NCBI GenBank assembly: GCA_037439905.1
Contig: JBBIVC010000001.1
Location: forward strand, 1-30,412
From: Thermoflexus sp.
Lineage (GTDB): Bacteria; Chloroflexota; Dehalococcoidia; Tepidiformales; Tepidiformaceae
Direction: 5' to 3'
DNA length: 30,412 bases
Below the pieces are notes generated by a model. The model did not search any database. It saw nothing but the letters and a program-made list of their open reading frames with translations, and had not been told where the DNA came from. Shown here piece by piece: positions 18,956 through 29,460 of the stretch. The stretch's first letter is position 1. The number at the start of each line of letters is the position of its first letter. The position numbers and the translations under genes are program-made.

Positions 18956-19170
18956 CTTCGCGGCTCGGCCCGTTCGTCTCCGGTCCGGGCGGCGGTGTCA
19001 CTGAATCCTGAGGCAGCGATGCCGAGGCTGCGCGGCTTGCGGTGGGCTCGAAGAAGCATTTCGCTTACTGCTTCGCGCAGGATTTCTGCCACCGGGACGC
19101 CGCGCTCCGCCGCCAGGCGTTCGAGTTCCTGCAGCTCGGCGTCGTCCAGCTCGATGGAGGTGTAGCCCAC
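18946..19170 (-). CDS. vapB: CopG/RHH-type VapB antitoxin
   Basis: YTSIELDDAELQELERLAAERGVPVAEILREAV ribbon-helix-helix pattern, C-terminal SLGIAASG..DTAAR; directly upstream of vapC. Confidence 0.8.
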   Translation of the reverse strand: MGYTSIELDDAELQELERLAAERGVPVAEILREAVSEMLLRAHRKPRSLGIAASGFSDTAARTGDERAEPRSWR

Positions 19171-19176
19171 GGGCCG

Positions 19177-19185
19177 ATTATACCA
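19177..19185 (-). promoter_or_regulatory. Extended -10 promoter TGgTATAAT of vapBC (leaderless)
   Basis: Perfect TATAAT with TG extension ending 6 nt before the GTG at 19170. Confidence 0.7.
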
Positions 19186-19194
19186 GTGGGCTGT

Positions 19195-20187
19195 CTACCG
19201 CCGCCCCAGCGCCTGCGGCAGCGCCCCGGGGTTCACACAGGCCGGTGGCTCTTCTCCCCGCAGGACTGCTTCCAGGTTGCGCATGGCAAGGTCCAGCATC
19301 GCCGCGCGCGTCTCAACGGTCGCCGAGCCAACGTGCGGCAACAACACCACGTTGGGCAGGCCCAGGATCGGTTCATCCGCTGCCGGCGGTTCGGTCTCGA
19401 GGACGTCGAGCGCGGCCCCGGCGATGGCGCCCGCCCGGAGCGCTTCCACCAGCGCCGCCTGGTCCACCACCGGCCCGCGCGAGGTGTTCACCAGCCATGC
19501 CGATGGCTTCATCAGCGCCAGCTCCCGCGCGCCGATCATGTGCTGCGTCGCGGGCGTCAGGTTCACATGGAGCGAAACGATGTCCGACTCGCGCAGGAGA
19601 TCGTGGAGGCTGCGGAACGCGCAGTACGCGAAACCGCCCGGCGGTGTTTCGAACGTGTCGTGGTAGATGACGCGCATCCCGAAGGCCTGCGCCCTTCGCG
19701 CCACCGCCTGGCCGATACGGCCCAGCCCGATGAGCCCGAGCGTCTTGCCGGCCAGGTCGAACCCGAGCGGTGGAGGCGGCTGGCGCGCGGCCCAGCCCCC
19801 GCCAGCCACATACGCCGCGTTTTCGAGCAGCCGGCGCGAAGCCGCGAGGATCAGCCCAATCGTGAGGTCGGCGACGGCCTCGCTCAGCACACCGGGGGTG
19901 TTGCAGACCACGATGCCGCGGCGGTCGAGCTCGGCGAGGTCGACATTGTTGTAACCCACGCCGAAGTTCGAAATCACCCGCAACCGTGGCGCGGCATCGA
20001 GCAGGCCGCTATCGACGGGGAAGGGCGCCGGGCAGAGCAGGCCCTCGGCCTCCGCCAGGGCGGCTACCACCGCCTCGCGGTTGCTCCCCGGCGGGAGCAT
20101 GACCAGGTCGCACGATTCGCGGAGCCGCGCCTCTGCCTCGGGAGGCAGCGAGATAACGACGCATGCGAGCGGGCGCCTGGTGGACAC
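19195..20187 (-). CDS. D-2-hydroxyacid dehydrogenase (glyoxylate reductase-like)
   Basis: SNFGVGYNNVD, NTPGVL, GLIGLGRIG, SDIVSLH, VNTSRG, ALDVLETEP, PHVGSAT. Confidence 0.92.
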   Translation of the reverse strand: MSTRRPLACVVISLPPEAEARLRESCDLVMLPPGSNREAVVAALAEAEGLLCPAPFPVDSGLLDAAPRLRVISNFGVGYNNVDLAELDRRGIVVCNTPGVLSEAVADLTIGLILAASRRLLENAAYVAGGGWAARQPPPPLGFDLAGKTLGLIGLGRIGQAVARRAQAFGMRVIYHDTFETPPGGFAYCAFRSLHDLLRESDIVSLHVNLTPATQHMIGARELALMKPSAWLVNTSRGPVVDQAALVEALRAGAIAGAALDVLETEPPAADEPILGLPNVVLLPHVGSATVETRAAMLDLAMRNLEAVLRGEEPPACVNPGALPQALGRR

Positions 20188-20262
20188 GGGCCAACCCTAC
20201 AGGCTGGTGGCTCGCGCGCCAATCCGCCCCGCCCGTCCGCGGCCGTTCGCTACACTCGGTGC

Positions 20263-21039
20263 ATGCCCTTCACGCGCCGCAGCGGGCTGCGCATCCACTA
20301 CCGGGTCGCGGGGAAAGGCCAGCCCCTCGTCCTGGTGCACGGCTACACCTCGAGCGGATGGACGAACTGGGTATCGTCGGGCTGGGTTGAGTTTCTTTCC
20401 GCCAGGCACACGCTCCTGGTGCCCGACCTGCGGGGCCACGGCCTGAGCCAGAAGCCCTATTCGACGGCCGCCTACACCATCGGTTCGCTGGCCGAAGACG
20501 TCCTCGCCGTGATGGACCGTGAAGGTTTCGAGCGGTCGCCGGTCTTCGGGTACTCGATGGGCGGCATGGTCGCGATCGAGCTGCTGCTTTCGCACCCGGA
20601 GCGTATCCCCGCGGCGATCATCGGGGGCATGGGCAGCTACTTCCCGCGCGGCCGGGGCCGCTTTTCGCTGGAACGGCAGCCCGCCGCCAGCACCGCCCCG
20701 CGCCGCACGCCGCTGGAGCTCGCCCGCTTCCTGGGCGGGTACTTCGCCCAGTTCGACCCCATCGCCCTCGACCGCGTCTTCCGGGGCGTGTTTCGCGGCA
20801 ACCAGCCCGTCGACCGGGGCCGCCTTGGCGAAGTCCATACGCCCGTGCTCGTGGCTGCCGGCACGCGGGACCCGTTCTTCGCGCCGGCACGGGACCTCGC
20901 CGCCGCCATCCCCGGGGGGCGGTTTGTCCCCCTGCCGGGGGAAGGCCACCTGAGCGCGATCCGGAACCCGCTGTTCCGGGCCGAGGTGGTGGCCTTCCTG
21001 GACGGGCTGGACGGGCACGGTACTGGGCCGGGTCCGTAG
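20263..21039 (+). CDS. Alpha/beta hydrolase
   Basis: LVLVHG, DLRGHGLS, GYSMGG nucleophile elbow, GTRDP, GEGHL. Confidence 0.88.
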   Translation: MPFTRRSGLRIHYRVAGKGQPLVLVHGYTSSGWTNWVSSGWVEFLSARHTLLVPDLRGHGLSQKPYSTAAYTIGSLAEDVLAVMDREGFERSPVFGYSMGGMVAIELLLSHPERIPAAIIGGMGSYFPRGRGRFSLERQPAASTAPRRTPLELARFLGGYFAQFDPIALDRVFRGVFRGNQPVDRGRLGEVHTPVLVAAGTRDPFFAPARDLAAAIPGGRFVPLPGEGHLSAIRNPLFRAEVVAFLDGLDGHGTGPGP

Positions 21040-23314: not shown

Positions 23315-23851
23315 CTAGCCTGCCCGCCGGACCTCGCCAGCCCCACGCCCGGCGCTCTGCCTGCTCAGCAGGCCCTGGAGCCAGCCGATATCGGCCCGCA
23401 GGTGCGCGATGCGCCGTTCCCGGGCCGCCTGGCCCCAGGCGTCCGCGGCTTCTTCGCGCAGGGCGCGTTCCTCATCCGTGAGCCTGCGCGCTGCCGCCGC
23501 CATCCGCGTACGCAGGACGCCGAGCGCGTCGTCGAGGCCGGAGATGCCTGCGGCGGAGACCGCCAGCGCGAACAGCGGCGATTCGAGCGGCTCGCGCTGC
23601 AGGATGCCTGCGGCTGCGCGGCCCGCGGCGGCACGGCCCGCCGCCGTGAGCCGCAGGACCCGGCGGAAGTGCCCATTCTCGCCCCGGGTGTCCTCGGCCT
23701 CGATGAACCCCTTCGCGACGAGCGCATCGACGCGCCGGTAGAGCGTGCTGCGCGTGGCGCGCACGCCCAACCCTTGCAGGTGGTCCAGCAGTTCGTACGG
23801 GTGCGTGGGGTTGACGGCAACGGCGGCGAGGATGGGGAAGTCGTCGGTCAT
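23315..23851 (-). CDS. PadR-like winged-helix regulator with C-terminal helical extension
   Basis: ILAAV...PTHPYEL, STLYRRVDALVAKGFI, RRVLRLTAAGR wHTH; C-terminal RIAHLRADIGWL like the PadR C-domain. Confidence 0.7.
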   Translation of the reverse strand: MTDDFPILAAVAVNPTHPYELLDHLQGLGVRATRSTLYRRVDALVAKGFIEAEDTRGENGHFRRVLRLTAAGRAAAGRAAAGILQREPLESPLFALAVSAAGISGLDDALGVLRTRMAAAARRLTDEERALREEAADAWGQAARERRIAHLRADIGWLQGLLSRQSAGRGAGEVRRAG

Positions 23852-23880
23852 GGCGTGGAGTATCGCCGCGCCTGGCCGTG

Positions 23881-24010
23881 CTTCCGTATCCGGAAGTTTC
23901 CCGATTGGGAGCAGGCGAAATGCCCATTCGGGAACGGCGCCGGGAAGAGTCGCAAATGGCGCCACGGGCTGTTCCCACCCGGGAACGCGAGCATATTCCC
24001 GTATGGGATT
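23881..24010. promoter_or_regulatory. Array of five TTCCC-N4-GGGAA-like palindromes (putative operators)
   Basis: CTTCCG-tatc-CGGAAG 23881-23896; TTCCC-gatt-GGGAG 23898-23911; TGCCC-attc-GGGAA 23921-23934; GTTCCC-accc-GGGAAC 23971-23986; ATTCCC-gtat-GGGATT 23995-24010. Confidence 0.55.
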
Positions 24011-24240
24011 CCGGCAGGCTGGAGAGTCCGGATGAGGGCGCCGCCGCCTTCCCCGGCCCGGGCGCGGGAAGCCTCCCACGCTCTTCCGCGGCAGGAGCTT
24101 CCGCCGCGCGCGAGGAACCTCACCGGATACCCCCGCCCGGCTGCCGTGTTACGGGGGCCACGGTGGAGTGACGGTGACAGCGCAGTGACAACCGGGCGGA
24201 ACCGCTTGAGAAGGCGCCGCCCGGTGGTACGTTTTGCGGC

Positions 24241-24465
24241 ATGGAAAACACCGCGGCGGCGGTGGTCTGCGCATGGTGCGGCGCCCTGGCCTCGGGGTCG
24301 CTGCCGGCGGAGCGCGTCTCGCACGGGATCTGCGTGGACTGCGTGATCGGGTTCCTCCGCCGCCTCCCGCCCGAGTACCTCCGGTCGATCGCCGAACCCG
24401 ATGGCGCGGTGACGCTGTTCTCGGGCTACCGGTTCGAGTTGCCTCCGCTGGTCCCGGCCGACTGA
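24241..24465 (+). CDS. Small putative zinc-binding protein (CAWC...SHGICxDC)
   Basis: 74 aa with CxxC-x17-CxxC; promoter TTGAGA (24206-24211) and TGgTACGTT (24225-24233) ending 7 nt before the ATG. Confidence 0.55.
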   Translation: MENTAAAVVCAWCGALASGSLPAERVSHGICVDCVIGFLRRLPPEYLRSIAEPDGAVTLFSGYRFELPPLVPAD

Positions 24466-25082
24466 GCGCCCCGTGTCCATCCAGCGCTGCCGATGGATGC
24501 CCGCCAGCCCACCTCGGTAACCACGATGCCAACGCCGGCTGCCAGGAGGTGTTGCCAGTCGAACTCCTTTCCGTAGCACACGACGCGGCAGGCGAGGAAC
24601 CCGAACAGCCCGGCGATGCCCATCGCGCGGAGCCACCACCGGGGCGCAACCCACACCAGGGCAGCTGCCACGGCGAAGAGGGCCGAAGACGACCCGGAAT
24701 CCAGCGTTTCGGCTGCCGCCAGCGCACCCGCGCGCCACTCACCTGCAACCCGCAGGAGTACGAGGATCGGGACTGTGCTCAGCCAGTCGCCCAGCCAGAA
24801 CACGGCCAGCGTCATCCGCGAACCAGCTCTCCACTCCAGCGCCGGCAGGAGCAGGACCAGGTACTGGTTCAGGCCGCTAAACCCCGGGCCATGCTGAAAC
24901 AACGGACTCACCGCCAACCGGTACCACTGCCCCCGCTGGAACGTGTCCCAGTCCACACCAAAGTGGGCGGTTAGCCACGCATGCAGCCCGGGGTCGAGGG
25001 CGGTCGCCACCTGCAACCCCACGATGACCGCCATGAGGATCAATGACACAGCGAACCGGCGTCCGGCCCGTACCGCTATCAC
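24426..25082 (-). CDS. Rhomboid-like intramembrane protein
   Basis: GQWYRLAVSPLFQH (WR motif), LEWRAG, DSGSSSALF (GxSS) and DWQHLLA (His); GTG start overlapping the upstream stop (GTGA). Confidence 0.65.
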   Translation of the reverse strand: MIAVRAGRRFAVSLILMAVIVGLQVATALDPGLHAWLTAHFGVDWDTFQRGQWYRLAVSPLFQHGPGFSGLNQYLVLLLPALEWRAGSRMTLAVFWLGDWLSTVPILVLLRVAGEWRAGALAAAETLDSGSSSALFAVAAALVWVAPRWWLRAMGIAGLFGFLACRVVCYGKEFDWQHLLAAGVGIVVTEVGWRASIGSAGWTRGAQSAGTSGGNSNR

Positions 25083-26824
25083 GCCGCGCTTCCCGGCAAC
25101 CGACGGCGCCAGGGCAGCAGGGTCGCTGCCTCCGCCTTCCACGACCACGGCAGCCGGCCTGTCGTTTCGCCCACCCGGGCGACGGCCAGCACGAGTTGCG
25201 GCAGTTGCAGATCGCTTCGATACACCAGGTAGCGCGGCTCCCAGCGCGGCTTCCACTTCTCCTTGTACGCGCGGAGCCCTTCATAGCTGAAGAATCGCGA
25301 GCCGCGACTGTAAAGCAGGCGCAAAGCTGCCGCGACCAGCCCTCCGCCCTCGAGGTTTGCGAGCGGAGCCATGCCCAGGTTCATCCCCTCCATGCCTGCG
25401 GCGCGGAAATGCTGAATCAGGTGCAGAAAGAGGAAGTCCATCACCCCGTCTTCAGCATCGGGGCGGTGCCGCATGAGGTCGAAATTGCCCTCCTTCGATT
25501 GGAAGGACGGGATCACGTTCGCGAACGCTTCGATTGCCCCATCCGGCGCGCGGACCACGTGCACCTCCGTCTCATTGAGGTAGTCGCGGCTGAACTGTCC
25601 AAGCGTGAATCCCCGTTCCCTGCGCTCCCTGGCGGCGAGCCATGCATTCGAGACCTCCTCGAGCTCGTTCATCGTCCCGGGTGGCACCGGGCATGGAAGC
25701 ACCTCGCAGCGGTACCCCTCCCGCTCGAGCCGGTTTGCGGCATTCCGGATGTGCTTGAAGGACTTCCCGGCGAGCGAGAACTCCGGGAGTGGAATCACCG
25801 CCTCCTCGCCGATCTTCAGCGCTTTCAGCCCCGCCTCCCGGAGGTCCGGCACACCCGCTTCGGTAACCTGGTGGAAGCAGAAGGCCCAGCCGTTCAGGTC
25901 ACAGAACTCCGCGAATTCCCGCACCACGAGCTTCCGCGCGAAGGGCTCGCCGATGGGCTCCCCGAGGGCCACTGCCGTCGCCCCTGCCATCCGGTAGCCG
26001 ATGAACGCCTCGCCCGAGCTGGCGAAGAAGTAGGTCTTGTCGTCGAGCAAGTGAAAGTAGGCGACGGAGTTGGCCGCGTACCGTTCGAGCATGGCCCTGA
26101 CGCGAACTCTTTCCAGGCGACCCGCGCCGGCCCGGTGCAAAGCGGGCCGGAGGAGCTGCCAGATCCCCGCGGCCAGGACTCCGCTTGCCAACAGCCGGGC
26201 AGAGTGAATGAACCATGTGCCGTGCCGGCTGGCCGGTTCGATCGTTGTTGCCGGCACAACGAAGAGCAGGCGGAGGGCATTCTCGGCCGGAGCCTGGAGG
26301 AGCTGCGCGGCATTCTCGGCCGACTCCGAAAAAGACGTGGTGTCCCGGAAATGGGAATCCAGCAAGTACAGACCGGCGAACCCATAGGCCAGCACACCCA
26401 GCTCGCCGAGGGCCAGCCAGAGCAGCCCGCGCCTCGCCCGTGCCGGGTCGCTGCGCGCCGGGAACTGGCCGACCGTGGCGATAAGGGCCGCCAGGACGAA
26501 CCCCGCTGCGCCAACCCCGAGGTAATCCACACGCTTGAACGGGTGCGCCATCAGCGAAACCAGCGTCGCAAACGCCGCCACTGTCCAGGCGTGCCGCTTG
26601 CCATGCAGCAACCCCATTGCACTGCTCAGCAACGCCACCCCTGCGGCCAGCAGTACGTACCGGGCCCCGTCTACCACCTCGATGGGTAGCCGGTTGTGAA
26701 CTCTCCCGAACGAGATAATGGGCTGGTGGACGAGCGCCAGCATGATGTTGAGCAGGCCCAGCGCAGCCACCATCCCGCTCACCGCGCGCCGCGCCGCTCT
26801 TCCCGGGACCCCCACCCGCTTCAT
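25079..26824 (-). CDS. Aminoacyl-phosphatidylglycerol synthase (MprF/LysX TM + DUF2156 catalytic domain)
   Basis: N-terminal TM helices with GLLHGKRHAW; DKTYFF, ALGEPIG, KIGEEAVI, ERGFTLG, DLMRHRP..DGVMDFL, NLGMAPL, GLRAYKEKWKPRWEPRYLVY. Confidence 0.88.
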   Translation of the reverse strand: MKRVGVPGRAARRAVSGMVAALGLLNIMLALVHQPIISFGRVHNRLPIEVVDGARYVLLAAGVALLSSAMGLLHGKRHAWTVAAFATLVSLMAHPFKRVDYLGVGAAGFVLAALIATVGQFPARSDPARARRGLLWLALGELGVLAYGFAGLYLLDSHFRDTTSFSESAENAAQLLQAPAENALRLLFVVPATTIEPASRHGTWFIHSARLLASGVLAAGIWQLLRPALHRAGAGRLERVRVRAMLERYAANSVAYFHLLDDKTYFFASSGEAFIGYRMAGATAVALGEPIGEPFARKLVVREFAEFCDLNGWAFCFHQVTEAGVPDLREAGLKALKIGEEAVIPLPEFSLAGKSFKHIRNAANRLEREGYRCEVLPCPVPPGTMNELEEVSNAWLAARERRERGFTLGQFSRDYLNETEVHVVRAPDGAIEAFANVIPSFQSKEGNFDLMRHRPDAEDGVMDFLFLHLIQHFRAAGMEGMNLGMAPLANLEGGGLVAAALRLLYSRGSRFFSYEGLRAYKEKWKPRWEPRYLVYRSDLQLPQLVLAVARVGETTGRLPWSWKAEAATLLPWRRRLPGSAA

Positions 26825-27882
26825 CGCACCCGCCCGTTCCTCAGCGTCGCAACCGCCCACGCTCCCGCCACGAGCGGGAGCCAGACTTCGAAAAGCCGGT
26901 ACATGATGACCGCCGCTGCCGCGGTCGCAGCCGGCACGCCGAACGAAATGAAGACCGCTCCGAGCGAGGCCTCAGCGAAGCCCAGCCCCGCCGGAAGCAC
27001 CCCCACAATCGTGAACAGCACACCAATCGAATAGGCGACGAGCGCTACATCGAGGCCCTTCCCCGCGCCCAGGGCAAGCAGTACGGCCCAGATCGTCGCC
27101 ACCCCAACGGCCTCCACCACCAGCGCGTGGAGCACGGGCCGCCCGATGACCCGCAGGTCATCCCTCAACCACGAGACAGCGTCATACAGCTCGTCGGCGG
27201 CCTGTGCGGAGTCGCTGGCGGCGTCGGCACCGCGCCCAGTCCACAGCCGCATGCGCGCCTTCACCCGGGCTGGCAGCGCGTAGAGCGTTCGCAAGGCCGA
27301 CCGGCTTCGCAGCGCGGCCACGGCGAGAACCACCTGGCTCGCGAGGTAGACCCCGAACGCGGCGGTAGCCAGCGCTTCGCCACGGTTGAACTTGCCGTCG
27401 ATCATCACGACCACAAGCGCTGCCGCCAGTGTCGCCGCGAATGCGGCCTGGCCGAGGACGTGCGCGAGGAGATATCCCGTGATGACCTGTCCACGCGGCC
27501 AACCCCTTCTTCCCCCCTCGCGGAGGAGAACGGCCAATCCGCCCATGCCCCCCGACTTCGCCACCGTGTTGAGGAACAGCCCCGCGGTTGCGAGGCGGAG
27601 CTGGCTGGAAAACGAGTCGGAGACGCCGACGCTGCGGAACGCCGTGCACTGGAGCGCTGCGTAGTTCACCACGAACAGCAGGCTCAACCCCGCTGCCACC
27701 GCCACATACCACGGGTTGGCAGCCCGCAATGTCGAGGCCATCGCGGGCAGCTCCGACCGGCTCGCCCAGGCGAACGCGCCGGCAAGCACGAGGAGGGCTC
27801 CAATGCCTGCAAGTTGGAGGTAAGGGAGGCGGTGCGGGAGCTTTGGCATGTCGACGGGAGTAGCCCCCGGAGGCTGGGTCAC
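26821..27882 (-). CDS. Lysylphosphatidylglycerol synthase TM / flippase-like domain protein (UPF0104)
   Basis: LRAANPWYV, FLNTVAKSGGMGG, VLPAGLGFAEASL, AAVIMYRLFEVWLP; stop overlaps the next ATG (ATGA). Confidence 0.82.
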   Translation of the reverse strand: MTQPPGATPVDMPKLPHRLPYLQLAGIGALLVLAGAFAWASRSELPAMASTLRAANPWYVAVAAGLSLLFVVNYAALQCTAFRSVGVSDSFSSQLRLATAGLFLNTVAKSGGMGGLAVLLREGGRRGWPRGQVITGYLLAHVLGQAAFAATLAAALVVVMIDGKFNRGEALATAAFGVYLASQVVLAVAALRSRSALRTLYALPARVKARMRLWTGRGADAASDSAQAADELYDAVSWLRDDLRVIGRPVLHALVVEAVGVATIWAVLLALGAGKGLDVALVAYSIGVLFTIVGVLPAGLGFAEASLGAVFISFGVPAATAAAAVIMYRLFEVWLPLVAGAWAVATLRNGRVR

Positions 27883-28128: not shown

Positions 28129-29460
28129 GTGAGACAGCTGGTGGTGGTGCGCGGGACGGTTGGGAAGGTGGGGCAAGGCCTCATCCTCTATTACTCGGCA
28201 AGGTTTTTCGCCCAGGTTGCCCAGAACCTGCTGTTCGCGGCGCTCTTCGTGGCAGCGGGCACCAGCGAGAATGCGGCCATCGGCCTGAGCTCGCTGCTCA
28301 TCGCCACCACGGCGGCATCGCTCATGTTCGGCGTCCCGGGTGGCGCGCTGGCCGACCGCATCGGCCCCGGGCGGGGCATGGCCCTCGGCGCCATCCTGCG
28401 CACCGCGGTCATCGTCCTCTGCTGCCTCCAGTTCAATGCGCCTTCCCTGGCGGCCGTGGTGATCTTCGCCTACTCGGCCGTCTCGCAGGTGTATTCGCCA
28501 TCGGAGATGGCGATGGTGCGCGTGCTCTGCGGGAAGGGCCGCGGCGCGGGCCACTCGCTCGGCATCGCTCTCCAGTACGCGGGCCAGGGAGCGGGGATGC
28601 TGGTGCTGGCGCCGCTGCTGTTCTTCCTCGGTGGCGCCCAGGGCATGCTCATCGGCGCCTCGATTGCCGGGCTGGTGCTTTCCGCCATCACGGCCGCGCT
28701 CTCGCTGCGCCACGGACGGCCCGTGCGTGTTCCCATGGGCGACCATTCTTCCATCCGTGATTCGCTTCGCGTCTTCAAGCGCTCGGCGATGGCCCGCGAT
28801 GCACTCGCCGTGCTCGCCGTCCAGACCATGATCGTCCAGGGCATCGTGGTCGCCCTGCCGCTGTACATCCGGAACGACATCTCTCTCGGCGAGGAGTGGG
28901 GCCTGTTCCTGGTCGCGCCCGGCGCGCTTGGCGTGGTCGCGGGCCTGGCCTGGTCGGCCGCGGCGGTCACGTCGGAGGTCGCGCAAAAAACCATGCGCCT
29001 TGCCCTCGTTTCGATGGTGGTGGGAGTGTTCGCGCTGGCCGCCCTGGACTACGGCCTCAATGCGGTACTCACCATCACCCGGTTCGGGCCACTCATCGAC
29101 CTGGAAGCCGACCTGAATACGACGTTCATCGTCGCCTTCCCGGTAGCATTCCTCGTCGGCTTTGCTATCGCGCTGGCCCTCGTCTCGGCGCGGGTGGCGC
29201 TCACGGCCGCGGCGCCGCTCGGCCACCAGTCGCGCGTGTTCGCCGTGCAGGCCACGCTGACCGACTCGTTCGTGGTGCTGCCGCTGCTGCTGATGGGCGT
29301 CGGCGTCGAAGTCGCCGGGGCGCGCCCGGTGCTTGCCGCGATGGGGCTGGTTGGGCTCGCGACGCTGGCCTTCATCGAGCACCCGCGCTTCCGGCCGCTG
29401 GCCCTCCACGCCCACGAACCGCAACCGGTGCTCGCGACGGCCCACGCCCGGTCCGACTGA
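28129..29460 (+). CDS. MFS transporter
   Basis: About 12 TM helices; GGALADRIGPGR motif A, GRVFAVQ-like QSRVFAVQ; exact start uncertain. Confidence 0.8.
   Translation: MRQLVVVRGTVGKVGQGLILYYSARFFAQVAQNLLFAALFVAAGTSENAAIGLSSLLIATTAASLMFGVPGGALADRIGPGRGMALGAILRTAVIVLCCLQFNAPSLAAVVIFAYSAVSQVYSPSEMAMVRVLCGKGRGAGHSLGIALQYAGQGAGMLVLAPLLFFLGGAQGMLIGASIAGLVLSAITAALSLRHGRPVRVPMGDHSSIRDSLRVFKRSAMARDALAVLAVQTMIVQGIVVALPLYIRNDISLGEEWGLFLVAPGALGVVAGLAWSAAAVTSEVAQKTMRLALVSMVVGVFALAALDYGLNAVLTITRFGPLIDLEADLNTTFIVAFPVAFLVGFAIALALVSARVALTAAAPLGHQSRVFAVQATLTDSFVVLPLLLMGVGVEVAGARPVLAAMGLVGLATLAFIEHPRFRPLALHAHEPQPVLATAHARSD

Follow-up and report, generated by a model that had tools for sequence, protein, structure and literature searches.

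The characterised MprF/LpiA proteins (S. aureus MprF; R. tropici, 6lvf/7duw; P. aeruginosa, 9goe) are without a rhomboid component. The two halves of the S. aureus enzyme, comprising residues 1-320 and 328-840, stay functional when co-expressed separately (PMC8131360). Genes for aminoacyl-phosphatidylglycerol synthases (aaPGS) occur in operons with hydrolases of aminoacyl-phosphatidylglycerol (aa-PG) that act outside the membrane, the precedent invoked by the original prediction for this DNA, and the review of these systems names three hydrolase types only, with no rhomboid among them (PMC6103681). One of them, AcvB/VirJ, works on the outer, periplasmic side of the cytoplasmic membrane and tunes aminoacyl-lipid levels (PMC6103681), a role also described for aaPGS-linked hydrolases in two other papers (PMC13197417, PMC13135905). 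In the uncultured Chloroflexota bacterium described here, MprF is encoded as two separate polypeptides together with a third gene of predicted rhomboid fold. The cassette thus differs from the characterised MprFs both in its two-polypeptide MprF and in its third component.

In this wholly computational analysis, open reading frames in the window, the whole 30,412-nucleotide stretch, place the three genes head to tail on the minus strand in the order gene 1, gene 2, gene 3 (Table 1). Coupling of the three genes through ATGA and GTGA stop/start overlaps had been proposed, and both overlaps are present in the sequence. The full open reading frames of genes 2 and 3 extend over 25079-26860 and 24426-25256, respectively, with an ATG and a GTG as probable starts. 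The public gene call for gene 3 begins at an internal ATG (residue 17) and gives a protein of 202 residues. The upstream GTG at 25082 is preferred as the probable start because residues 5-16 (RAGRRF...) align with orthologues and because a four-nucleotide overlap recurs in 8 of 10 orthologous loci. Promoter and terminator scans gave matches at chance level.

Table 1. Features of the three-gene cassette, in coordinates of the window.
Feature	Position	Strand	Description
Gene 1	26821..27882	-	353 aa; MprF flippase subdomain 1 as its own polypeptide
Gene 2	25079..26824	-	581 aa from ATG at 26824; MprF TM subdomain 2 and cytoplasmic aminoacyl-PG synthase domain
Gene 3	24426..25082	-	218 aa; divergent six-helix, predicted rhomboid-fold Ser/His protein of the MprF-linked family
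ATGA overlap, gene 1/gene 2	26821..26824	-	TGA stop (26823-26821) over ATG start (26824-26822); read directly
GTGA overlap, gene 2/gene 3	25079..25082	-	TGA stop (25081-25079) over probable GTG start (25082-25080); read directly; equivalent ATGA or GTGA in 8/10 orthologous loci
G130-S131-S132 codons	24687..24695	-	GxS motif at TM4 start; putative nucleophile Ser132
His178 codon	24549..24551	-	TM6; putative general base; aligns to GlpG His254
Asp99 codon	24786..24788	-	TM3; family-specific near-invariant acidic residue

Judged by profile matches, one MprF is divided between genes 1 and 2, which jointly span its whole architecture. Gene 1 matches PF03706 (LPG_synthase_TM; E-value of 1.6e-23 over profile positions 3-302 of 302) as well as the flippase-like family TIGR00374, while gene 2 contains the DUF2156/LPG_synthase_C domain (PF09924; E-value of 1.5e-87 over positions 1-298 of 298). 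Residues 21-563 of the gene 2 protein align to positions 320-838 of the 841-position bifunctional MprF profile NF033480, revealing that the six-helix TM subdomain 2 precedes the catalytic domain, with a score of 423.6 bits that lies below the 600-bit equivalog cut-off. The soluble domain of gene 2 matches the solved lysyl-PG synthase 4v36 (2.7e-62) and alanyl-PG synthase 4v34 (8.5e-55). These matches bear out the predicted split between flippase and aminoacyl-PG synthase. Flippase subdomain 1 is absent from the synthase polypeptide, residing in the separate overlapping gene, and the split point coincides with the boundary between subdomains 1 and 2. The split is not universal, since flippase and synthase are fused in frame in 4 of 10 species of the source genus. 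An assembly frameshift was rejected as its origin, because the split is found again, with junction sequences that differ, in six species, in genomes G409 and G377 and in the metagenome contig L036.

The AlphaFold (AF2) model of gene 3 (pLDDT of 94.4) displays a divergent six-TM rhomboid fold, which aligns with GlpG with a Z score of 16.2 and an rmsd of 3.2 Å over 170 of the ~180 GlpG residues (VIA-align). The best 36 Foldseek matches of the model are all rhomboids, in agreement with the predicted rhomboid-type third gene. Profile-profile alignment by hhalign related the gene 3 family to canonical rhomboids (probability 85%, E-value of 6e-6), while the family profile against the single GlpG sequence gave a partial alignment of low probability. 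Rhomboid identity was detected by structure comparison and profile-profile alignment only: PF01694 gave no match to gene 3 even at E ≤ 10, and thus none reaching its gathering threshold, PF20401 (Rhomboid_2) scored 9 bits (E-value of 1.3) against a gathering threshold of 27 bits, and sequence searches of the PDB with the gene 3 protein or the family profile found no rhomboid. Weak matches to PF01694 or PF20401 are seen in 31 of 66 relatives at E ≤ 1 (best E-values of 4.2e-8 and 5.2e-6, respectively). In common with GlpG and the S54 rhomboids (PF01694), gene 3 has the six-helix fold, a Ser within a GxS motif where TM4 begins, a TM6 His followed by small-xxx-Gly, a WR-like motif in L1 and an E-x3-G motif in TM2/3. 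By language-model features, the clusters nearest to gene 3 belong to PF20401, a rhomboid-like family found mainly in Actinomycetota (score of 0.95, Atlas), for which the literature yielded no published function.

The Ser (GSSS) and His (QH) motifs that had been pointed out in the third gene correspond to G130-S131-S132-S133 (codons 24695-24684) and Q177-H178 (codons 24554-24549), and the dyad proved essentially invariant. G130, S132 and H178 occur in all 66 stand-alone homologues, and among representatives with a residue at the respective position Ser132 is found in 136 of 138 and His178 in 134 of 135. A helix begins at residue 132 in the model, and the hhalign register at the GxS motif is off by one residue. 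Invariance of Ser, His and Gly130 argues for a catalytically active enzyme, unlike iRhoms and derlins. The latter share the fold (Z scores of 9.5-15.7 to the gene 3 model) and act as partners devoted to another membrane machine, yet they have lost the Ser/His dyad that the gene 3 family keeps.

The oxyanion region is different. His150 and Asn154 are the oxyanion residues of GlpG, whose activity is abolished by N154A (PMC6400518). As judged from the family alignment, these TM2 residues are not conserved in the gene 3 family: the His150 position falls in an alignment gap, and that of Asn154 is occupied by Ile, Asn, Val or Leu (Asn in 14 of 66 members, gene 3 itself having N72). The family has in their stead its own Asp99 (64 of 66 stand-alone homologues; 129 of 138 representatives), and near-invariant Gln63 and Asp128 are likewise new relative to GlpG. 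Asp99 aligns by hhalign to GlpG A182, adjoining S181 of the S1/water-retention cavity (PMC4253528). The failure to keep the oxyanion residues is more readily reconciled with a labile ester as substrate than with a peptide bond. With regard to topology, the rhomboid comes after the cytoplasmic synthase domain in fusion proteins, so that TM1 would start inside in the canonical orientation, with which the Lys/Arg distribution of gene 3 agrees. On this view the Ser/His site should open towards the outer leaflet, to which aa-PG is delivered by flipping.

Conservation of the third gene with the synthase, a further element of the original prediction, is observed at several levels. A gene 3 homologue adjoins the MprF synthase in all 16 inspected loci, from at least six genera, a count that is distinct from 105 of the 142 representatives, which are stand-alone metagenomic proteins. 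Genome contigs were searched with the gene 2 protein, and a search of metagenome contigs gave one useful locus, L036, carrying the same three-gene cassette. The order flippase-synthase-rhomboid is found in 10 of 10 loci of the source genus, and the same 11 genomes among the sampled relatives carry both gene 3 and the orthologous synthase. Across 401 Chloroflexota genomes, strong matches in G409, G377, G329 and G194 and a weak one in G040 all show linkage to MprF, which takes four different forms, the partner being tandemly duplicated in G377. Natural synthase-rhomboid fusions account for 37 of the 142 representative clusters, and four of these are flippase-synthase-rhomboid proteins of 1120-1160 residues that retain the flippase subdomain. 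A region search for fusions yielded six proteins, and one fusion derives from Hoyosella sp. YIM 151337 (WP_265123369.1). If gene 3 is a hydrolase, a one-to-one fusion with the synthase whose product it would break down seems wasteful, a point against that reading. Canonical PF01694 rhomboids are encoded in 13 of 15 genomes of the source genus, with or without the cassette, and a housekeeping role for gene 3 was rejected on these grounds.

Like gene 3, several serine-type hydrolase candidates are encoded with aaPGS: AcvB/VirJ (lpiA-acvB), P. aeruginosa PA0919, Enterococcus AhyD and PesT of the Corynebacterium AlaDAGS operon. Gene 3 resembles them in its operon arrangement, overlapping the synthase gene and adjoining it throughout the inspected loci. 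These are soluble or anchored proteins with folds unrelated to rhomboids, whereas gene 3 is predicted to be an integral six-helix protein, of a family often fused to the synthase; it has no sequence or fold homology to any of the three known hydrolase types and no Pfam hydrolase match. A search of genome G000 with PF06057 (VirJ) found no match, the control of the same search being likewise silent.

We put at even the chances that gene 3 is a rhomboid-fold aminoacyl-lipid esterase or transacylase within a modular MprF-type lipid-aminoacylation system, forming a fourth MprF-linked class. Gene 2 would transfer an amino acid from aminoacyl-tRNA to a membrane lipid, probably phosphatidylglycerol, in the inner leaflet, whereupon gene 1, together with the membrane portion of gene 2, would carry the aminoacylated lipid across to the outer leaflet. 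Gene 3, presumed to be co-translated with the synthase and to have its Ser132/His178 site open to the outer face, would attack the ester bond between amino acid and flipped lipid, with Asp99 possibly binding the amino group. Hydrolysis would allow turnover and keep levels in check, the task of AcvB/VirJ, PA0919 and AhyD in other bacteria; alternatively, the aminoacyl group may be handed to another acceptor. Linkage and fusion to MprF suggest that the rhomboid acts on the modified lipid, and its substrate is probably not a protein. Slightly less probable, at somewhat under even chances, is the wider proposal that MprF-linked rhomboids are the first rhomboid-fold enzymes with a natural lipid substrate. 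They would be intramembrane Ser/His, possibly Ser/His/Asp99, aminoacyl-lipid esterases or aminoacyl-transferases that take flipped aa-PG directly from MprF at the outer leaflet, a fourth class of enzymes for aa-PG turnover and one of new structure. A literature search found no paper on an MprF-linked rhomboid, nor on any rhomboid acting on a lipid.

The fold and the Ser/His dyad are also those of S54 proteases, and to our knowledge all characterised active rhomboids are proteases. Gene 3 may accordingly be a true intramembrane serine protease, co-expressed with MprF for regulation, conceivable substrates being MprF itself, some regulator and a charge-dependent envelope protein. The family retains the WR, E-x3-G and small-xxx-G motifs, and the name given automatically in IMG to part of the family is 'membrane associated rhomboid family serine protease'. 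We consider a protease unlikely, if the most serious of the alternatives, as the oxyanion residues, one of them essential in GlpG, are not conserved, most genomes of the source genus have a separate canonical rhomboid, and the cassette harbours no conserved gene for a candidate single-pass substrate. The fusions in 37 clusters and the tandem duplication in G377, moreover, are hard to account for if a protease acts on an unrelated protein.

Derlins and iRhoms, which appear among the structural matches, act without catalysis, and a non-hydrolytic role can be envisaged in which gene 3 thins or distorts the bilayer, or offers a lipid-binding groove near MprF, thereby aiding release or translocation of the aminoacyl lipid or steadying the split MprF. 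A homologue, P0150, may carry an N-terminal rhomboid at the usual place of the flippase subdomain, as such a partner might. We regard this role as improbable: Ser132, His178 and Gly130 are near-absolute across ~140 clusters, unexpectedly for a scaffold, known pseudoproteases having lost these residues, and a flippase subdomain accompanies gene 3 in the window as it does its homologues in all inspected loci and in the triple fusions. That gene 3 is simply an unrelated membrane protein lying downstream of mprF in one lineage is scarcely credible, even though only ~5% of the sampled MprF-bearing Chloroflexota genomes have the partner. Adjacency persists across genera while the outer neighbours of the cassette vary, the four-nucleotide overlaps recur, presence and absence of synthase and gene 3 match exactly among sampled relatives, and the many independent fusions contradict incidental linkage.

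For most bacterial rhomboids no substrate or function has been assigned, and fusion together with strict linkage in the inspected loci ties the gene 3 rhomboid to one concrete, testable partner pathway. Should gene 3 prove to be a protease, it would still be a rare rhomboid with an identifiable client system. Membrane surface charge governs tolerance to cationic peptides and acid stress. If gene 3 acts on aa-PG, genes 1 and 2 would offer a natural case of an MprF that operates as separate flippase and synthase polypeptides, divided precisely where the laboratory constructs were. Gene 3 would then represent a new enzyme class controlling this charge, would give Rhomboid_2-like proteins a function and would show that rhomboid chemistry reaches beyond peptide bonds to the esters of lipids.

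The minus-strand genes 1, 2 and 3 lie in a window of ~68% G+C and form a cassette that we class as an MprF system joined by an accessory enzyme of rhomboid fold. The three genes of the original prediction and the ATGA and GTGA overlaps that join them were borne out by the ORFs and the sequence, as were the flippase-like and aminoacyl-PG synthase identities of the first two. P0001, the gene 1 protein, comprises a complete LPG_synthase_TM domain (PF03706; E 1.6e-23), and P0002, the product of gene 2, matches PF09924 (E 1.5e-87) and aligns to positions 320-838 of the bifunctional MprF model NF033480 (841 positions). Solved structures matched by the soluble domain of gene 2 include LysPGS (4v36; 2.7e-62), R. 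tropici MprF (6lvf) and AlaPGS (4v34; 8.5e-55), from which its amino-acid specificity is not readable. By domain content, genes 1 and 2 together make up an MprF in two pieces, divided at the boundary between subdomains 1 and 2 as defined in the RtMprF structure. They resemble, as two polypeptides parted at this boundary, the S. aureus MprF pieces 1-320 and 328-840, which still support Lys-PG translocation when co-expressed separately (PMC8131360). The split is genuine and recurs, since it is seen in six of ten loci of the genus with differing junction sequences, as well as in the Chloroflexota genomes G409 and G377 and the metagenome contig L036, and an assembly error is thereby ruled out; at the other four loci of the genus flippase and synthase are fused in one frame of ~920-970 aa.

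Features of the cassette and its surroundings, in window positions
Feature	Position	Strand	Remark
665-aa protein	19042-21039	+	
PadR-family regulator	23315-24079	-	~350 bp downstream of cassette
74-aa ORF	24241-24465	+	convergent with gene 3
Terminator-like hairpin	24264-24249	-	inside 74-aa ORF
Gene 3	ORF 24426-25256	-	likely start GTG at 25082
GTGA overlap	25079-25082	-	gene 2 TGA stop with GTG of gene 3
Gene 2	ORF 25079-26860	-	likely start ATG at 26824
ATGA overlap	26821-26824	-	gene 1 TGA stop with gene 2 ATG start
Gene 1	26821-27882	-	ORF
MFS transporter	28129-29460	+	divergent, upstream of cassette

The public call for gene 3 (P0005, 202 aa) begins at an internal ATG, residue 17. The upstream GTG is favoured as the probable start because the Arg-rich residues 5-16, which precede this ATG, are alignable with orthologues and because at 8 of 10 orthologous loci the synthase stop and the rhomboid start share a 4-nt overlap (ATGA or GTGA), the other two displaying a TAATG junction and no overlap, respectively. 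The poorly conserved 3' end of gene 3 overlaps by 40 nt with the 74-aa ORF, which carries CxxC...CxxC motifs (CAWC ... SHGICVDC); terminator-like sites such as the hairpin within it occur at chance frequency.

P0004, the 218-aa gene 3 protein, has no Pfam or NCBIfam match at normal thresholds, its match to PF20401 Rhomboid_2 being faint (E 1.3), and PDB sequence searches revealed no rhomboid. HMMER, run over all 1.84 billion representatives, identified 142 relatives; among 66 stand-alone ones, weak matches to PF01694 (best 4.2e-8) and to PF20401 (best 5.2e-6) were each found in 31. The nearest neighbours in the Atlas language-model search are PF20401 clusters from Actinomycetota. The rhomboid fold and the Ser and His motifs proposed for the third gene both held up. 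As modelled with AlphaFold2 from the family alignment (pLDDT 94.4, pTM 0.89), the protein is a rhomboid fold: the best 36 Foldseek matches are all GlpG or iRhom, and VIA-align gives a Z score of 16.2 against GlpG (170 residues, rmsd 3.2 A), compared with 9.5-11 for derlins and <6 for unrelated folds. Profile-profile alignment of the family with a set of ten canonical rhomboids, E. coli GlpG among them (Prob 85%, E 6e-6, 162 columns) equates R55, E83, G87, H178, A181 and G185 of P0004 with GlpG R137, E166, G170, H254, G257 and G261, respectively.

In the 66-member alignment G130, S132 and H178 are invariant, and with all representatives included, fusions among them, the Ser is present in 136 of 138 and the His in 134 of 135. 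Although the hhalign register at the GxS motif is off by one residue relative to canonical rhomboids, the invariant pattern and a helix that begins at residue 132 in the model agree with GlpG G199-L200-S201. Gene 3 resembles GlpG in its fold, G-x-S and His, but the oxyanion residues His150 and Asn154 are not conserved. In GlpG these residues and the Ser201 backbone amide constitute the oxyanion hole, and N154A is inactive (PMC6400518). Neither the alignment of 66 nor the profile-profile alignment revealed a counterpart of His150, and at the Asn154 position most members have Ile, Val or Leu, with Asn in 14/66, P0004 among these. Near-invariant polar residues comprise Asp99 (129/138), Gln63 and Asp128. 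Asp99 aligns beside GlpG S181, and S102 aligns to S185; the two GlpG residues belong to a water-retention site that merges with the S1 pocket (PMC4253528). As an acidic residue predicted to lie on the S1 side, Asp99 could bind an aminoacyl group through its ammonium.

Among 41 relatives, the 11 other genomes that carry the orthologous synthase (ten in the genus, plus G040) are also the ones with a gene 3 homologue, which always adjoins the synthase, in agreement with the expectation that the two genes are conserved together. G016 contains a distant synthase paralogue only and lacks gene 3. Synthase and rhomboid identities drop together across loci (80/66%, 58/41% and 54/35%), which fits inheritance as one unit. 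The outer neighbours of the cassette (MFS, thioredoxin-like, PadR and acyl-CoA dehydrogenase) are common only to the two closest species, so the PadR regulator and MFS transporter probably lie outside the module. Some 3.4 kb from the gene 3 end, the 665-aa protein displays an alpha/beta-hydrolase domain in its C-terminal third only (residues 428-639), its first ~400 residues having no Pfam match.

Strong family-HMM matches occur in 5 of 401 Chloroflexota genomes, the source genome G000 included, and all five are MprF-linked with differing layouts: three separate genes in G409; a separate flippase gene and a synthase-rhomboid-rhomboid fusion of 1059 aa in G377; flippase and synthase preceded by one rhomboid-like gene, with a second one convergent downstream, in G329; and a fused MprF with the rhomboid-like gene lying ~860 bp upstream in G194. 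The G377 frame (L041, G377:C37, 1588-4764, minus strand), with the separate flippase gene upstream, carries the MprF synthase and, after it, two rhomboid-like domains in tandem (E 2e-46 and 2.8e-42). At the G329 locus (L042, G329:C1, 2776-7176) the rhomboid-like genes flanking the split MprF match at E 6.9e-15 (upstream, same strand) and 7.6e-49 (downstream). Weak matches (E ~1e-9) belong to other rhomboids, none of which has a synthase within 1.5 kb; for G067, G119 and G193 the synthase is on another contig. As PF09924 is found in 106/401 genomes, a count that takes in one unpublished genome (G182), the partner accompanies only ~5% of MprF-bearing genomes in this phylum sample; within class Dehalococcoidia all sampled synthase-bearing genomes have it. 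Of the 142 representative clusters, 37 are natural fusions in which the synthase domain precedes the rhomboid domain, such as WP_265123369.1 of the actinobacterium Hoyosella sp. YIM 151337, and four of the 37 (1029-1159 aa) also contain the flippase. Some family members bear the IMG automatic name 'DUF2156 family / membrane associated rhomboid family serine protease'.

Because the rhomboid domain of the fusions lies C-terminal to a cytoplasmic synthase domain, its first helix has to begin on the inner side. The distribution of charges in P0004, with K/R residues clustered at the N-terminus, TM2/3 loop, TM4/5 loop and C-tail and acidic residues located in L1, L3 and L5, agrees with this orientation, pointing to a canonical rhomboid topology, in which Ser/His would open to the outer face. 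Synthesis of aminoacyl-PG takes place at the inner leaflet, after which MprF releases the lipid on the outer side (PMC8131360). Known aaPGS-linked hydrolases share an operon with the synthase, and the anchor of AcvB/VirJ is periplasmic; the three aa-PG hydrolase types reviewed, AhyD, VirJ and PesT, do not include a rhomboid (PMC6103681). Gene 3 is like these in its operon placement and unlike them in its rhomboid fold. In the proposed mechanism gene 2 would make aminoacyl-PG at the inner leaflet, MprF would release it to the outer leaflet, and the outward-facing Ser/His of gene 3 would act on the aminoacyl-lipid as an esterase or transacylase. The predicted outer-face Ser/His, the proposed outer-leaflet substrate and the precedent of operon-encoded hydrolases lead us to rate this reading the most likely, with middling confidence.

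That gene 3, with its GlpG-like dyad and altered oxyanion positions, is a true protease that acts on a protein appears rather unlikely, and a non-catalytic partner that helps to handle the lipid or stabilises the complex, in a family where Ser and His are so widely kept, seems less probable still. That a gene so regularly found beside or fused to the synthase is linked to MprF by chance is highly improbable; the remaining probability is reserved for unforeseen explanations. A housekeeping rhomboid was rejected because canonical PF01694 rhomboids are present in 13/15 genomes of the genus with or without the cassette; none was found in G000 (MAG 84% complete), probably reflecting an assembly gap.

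A literature search revealed nothing relevant on a rhomboid with MprF, DUF2156, lysylphosphatidylglycerol or aminoacyl-phosphatidylglycerol, nor on PF20401. The window contributes the fully unfused, translationally coupled three-gene form of the system, together with within-genus co-occurrence data, a family-wide active-site signature and evidence for the fold.
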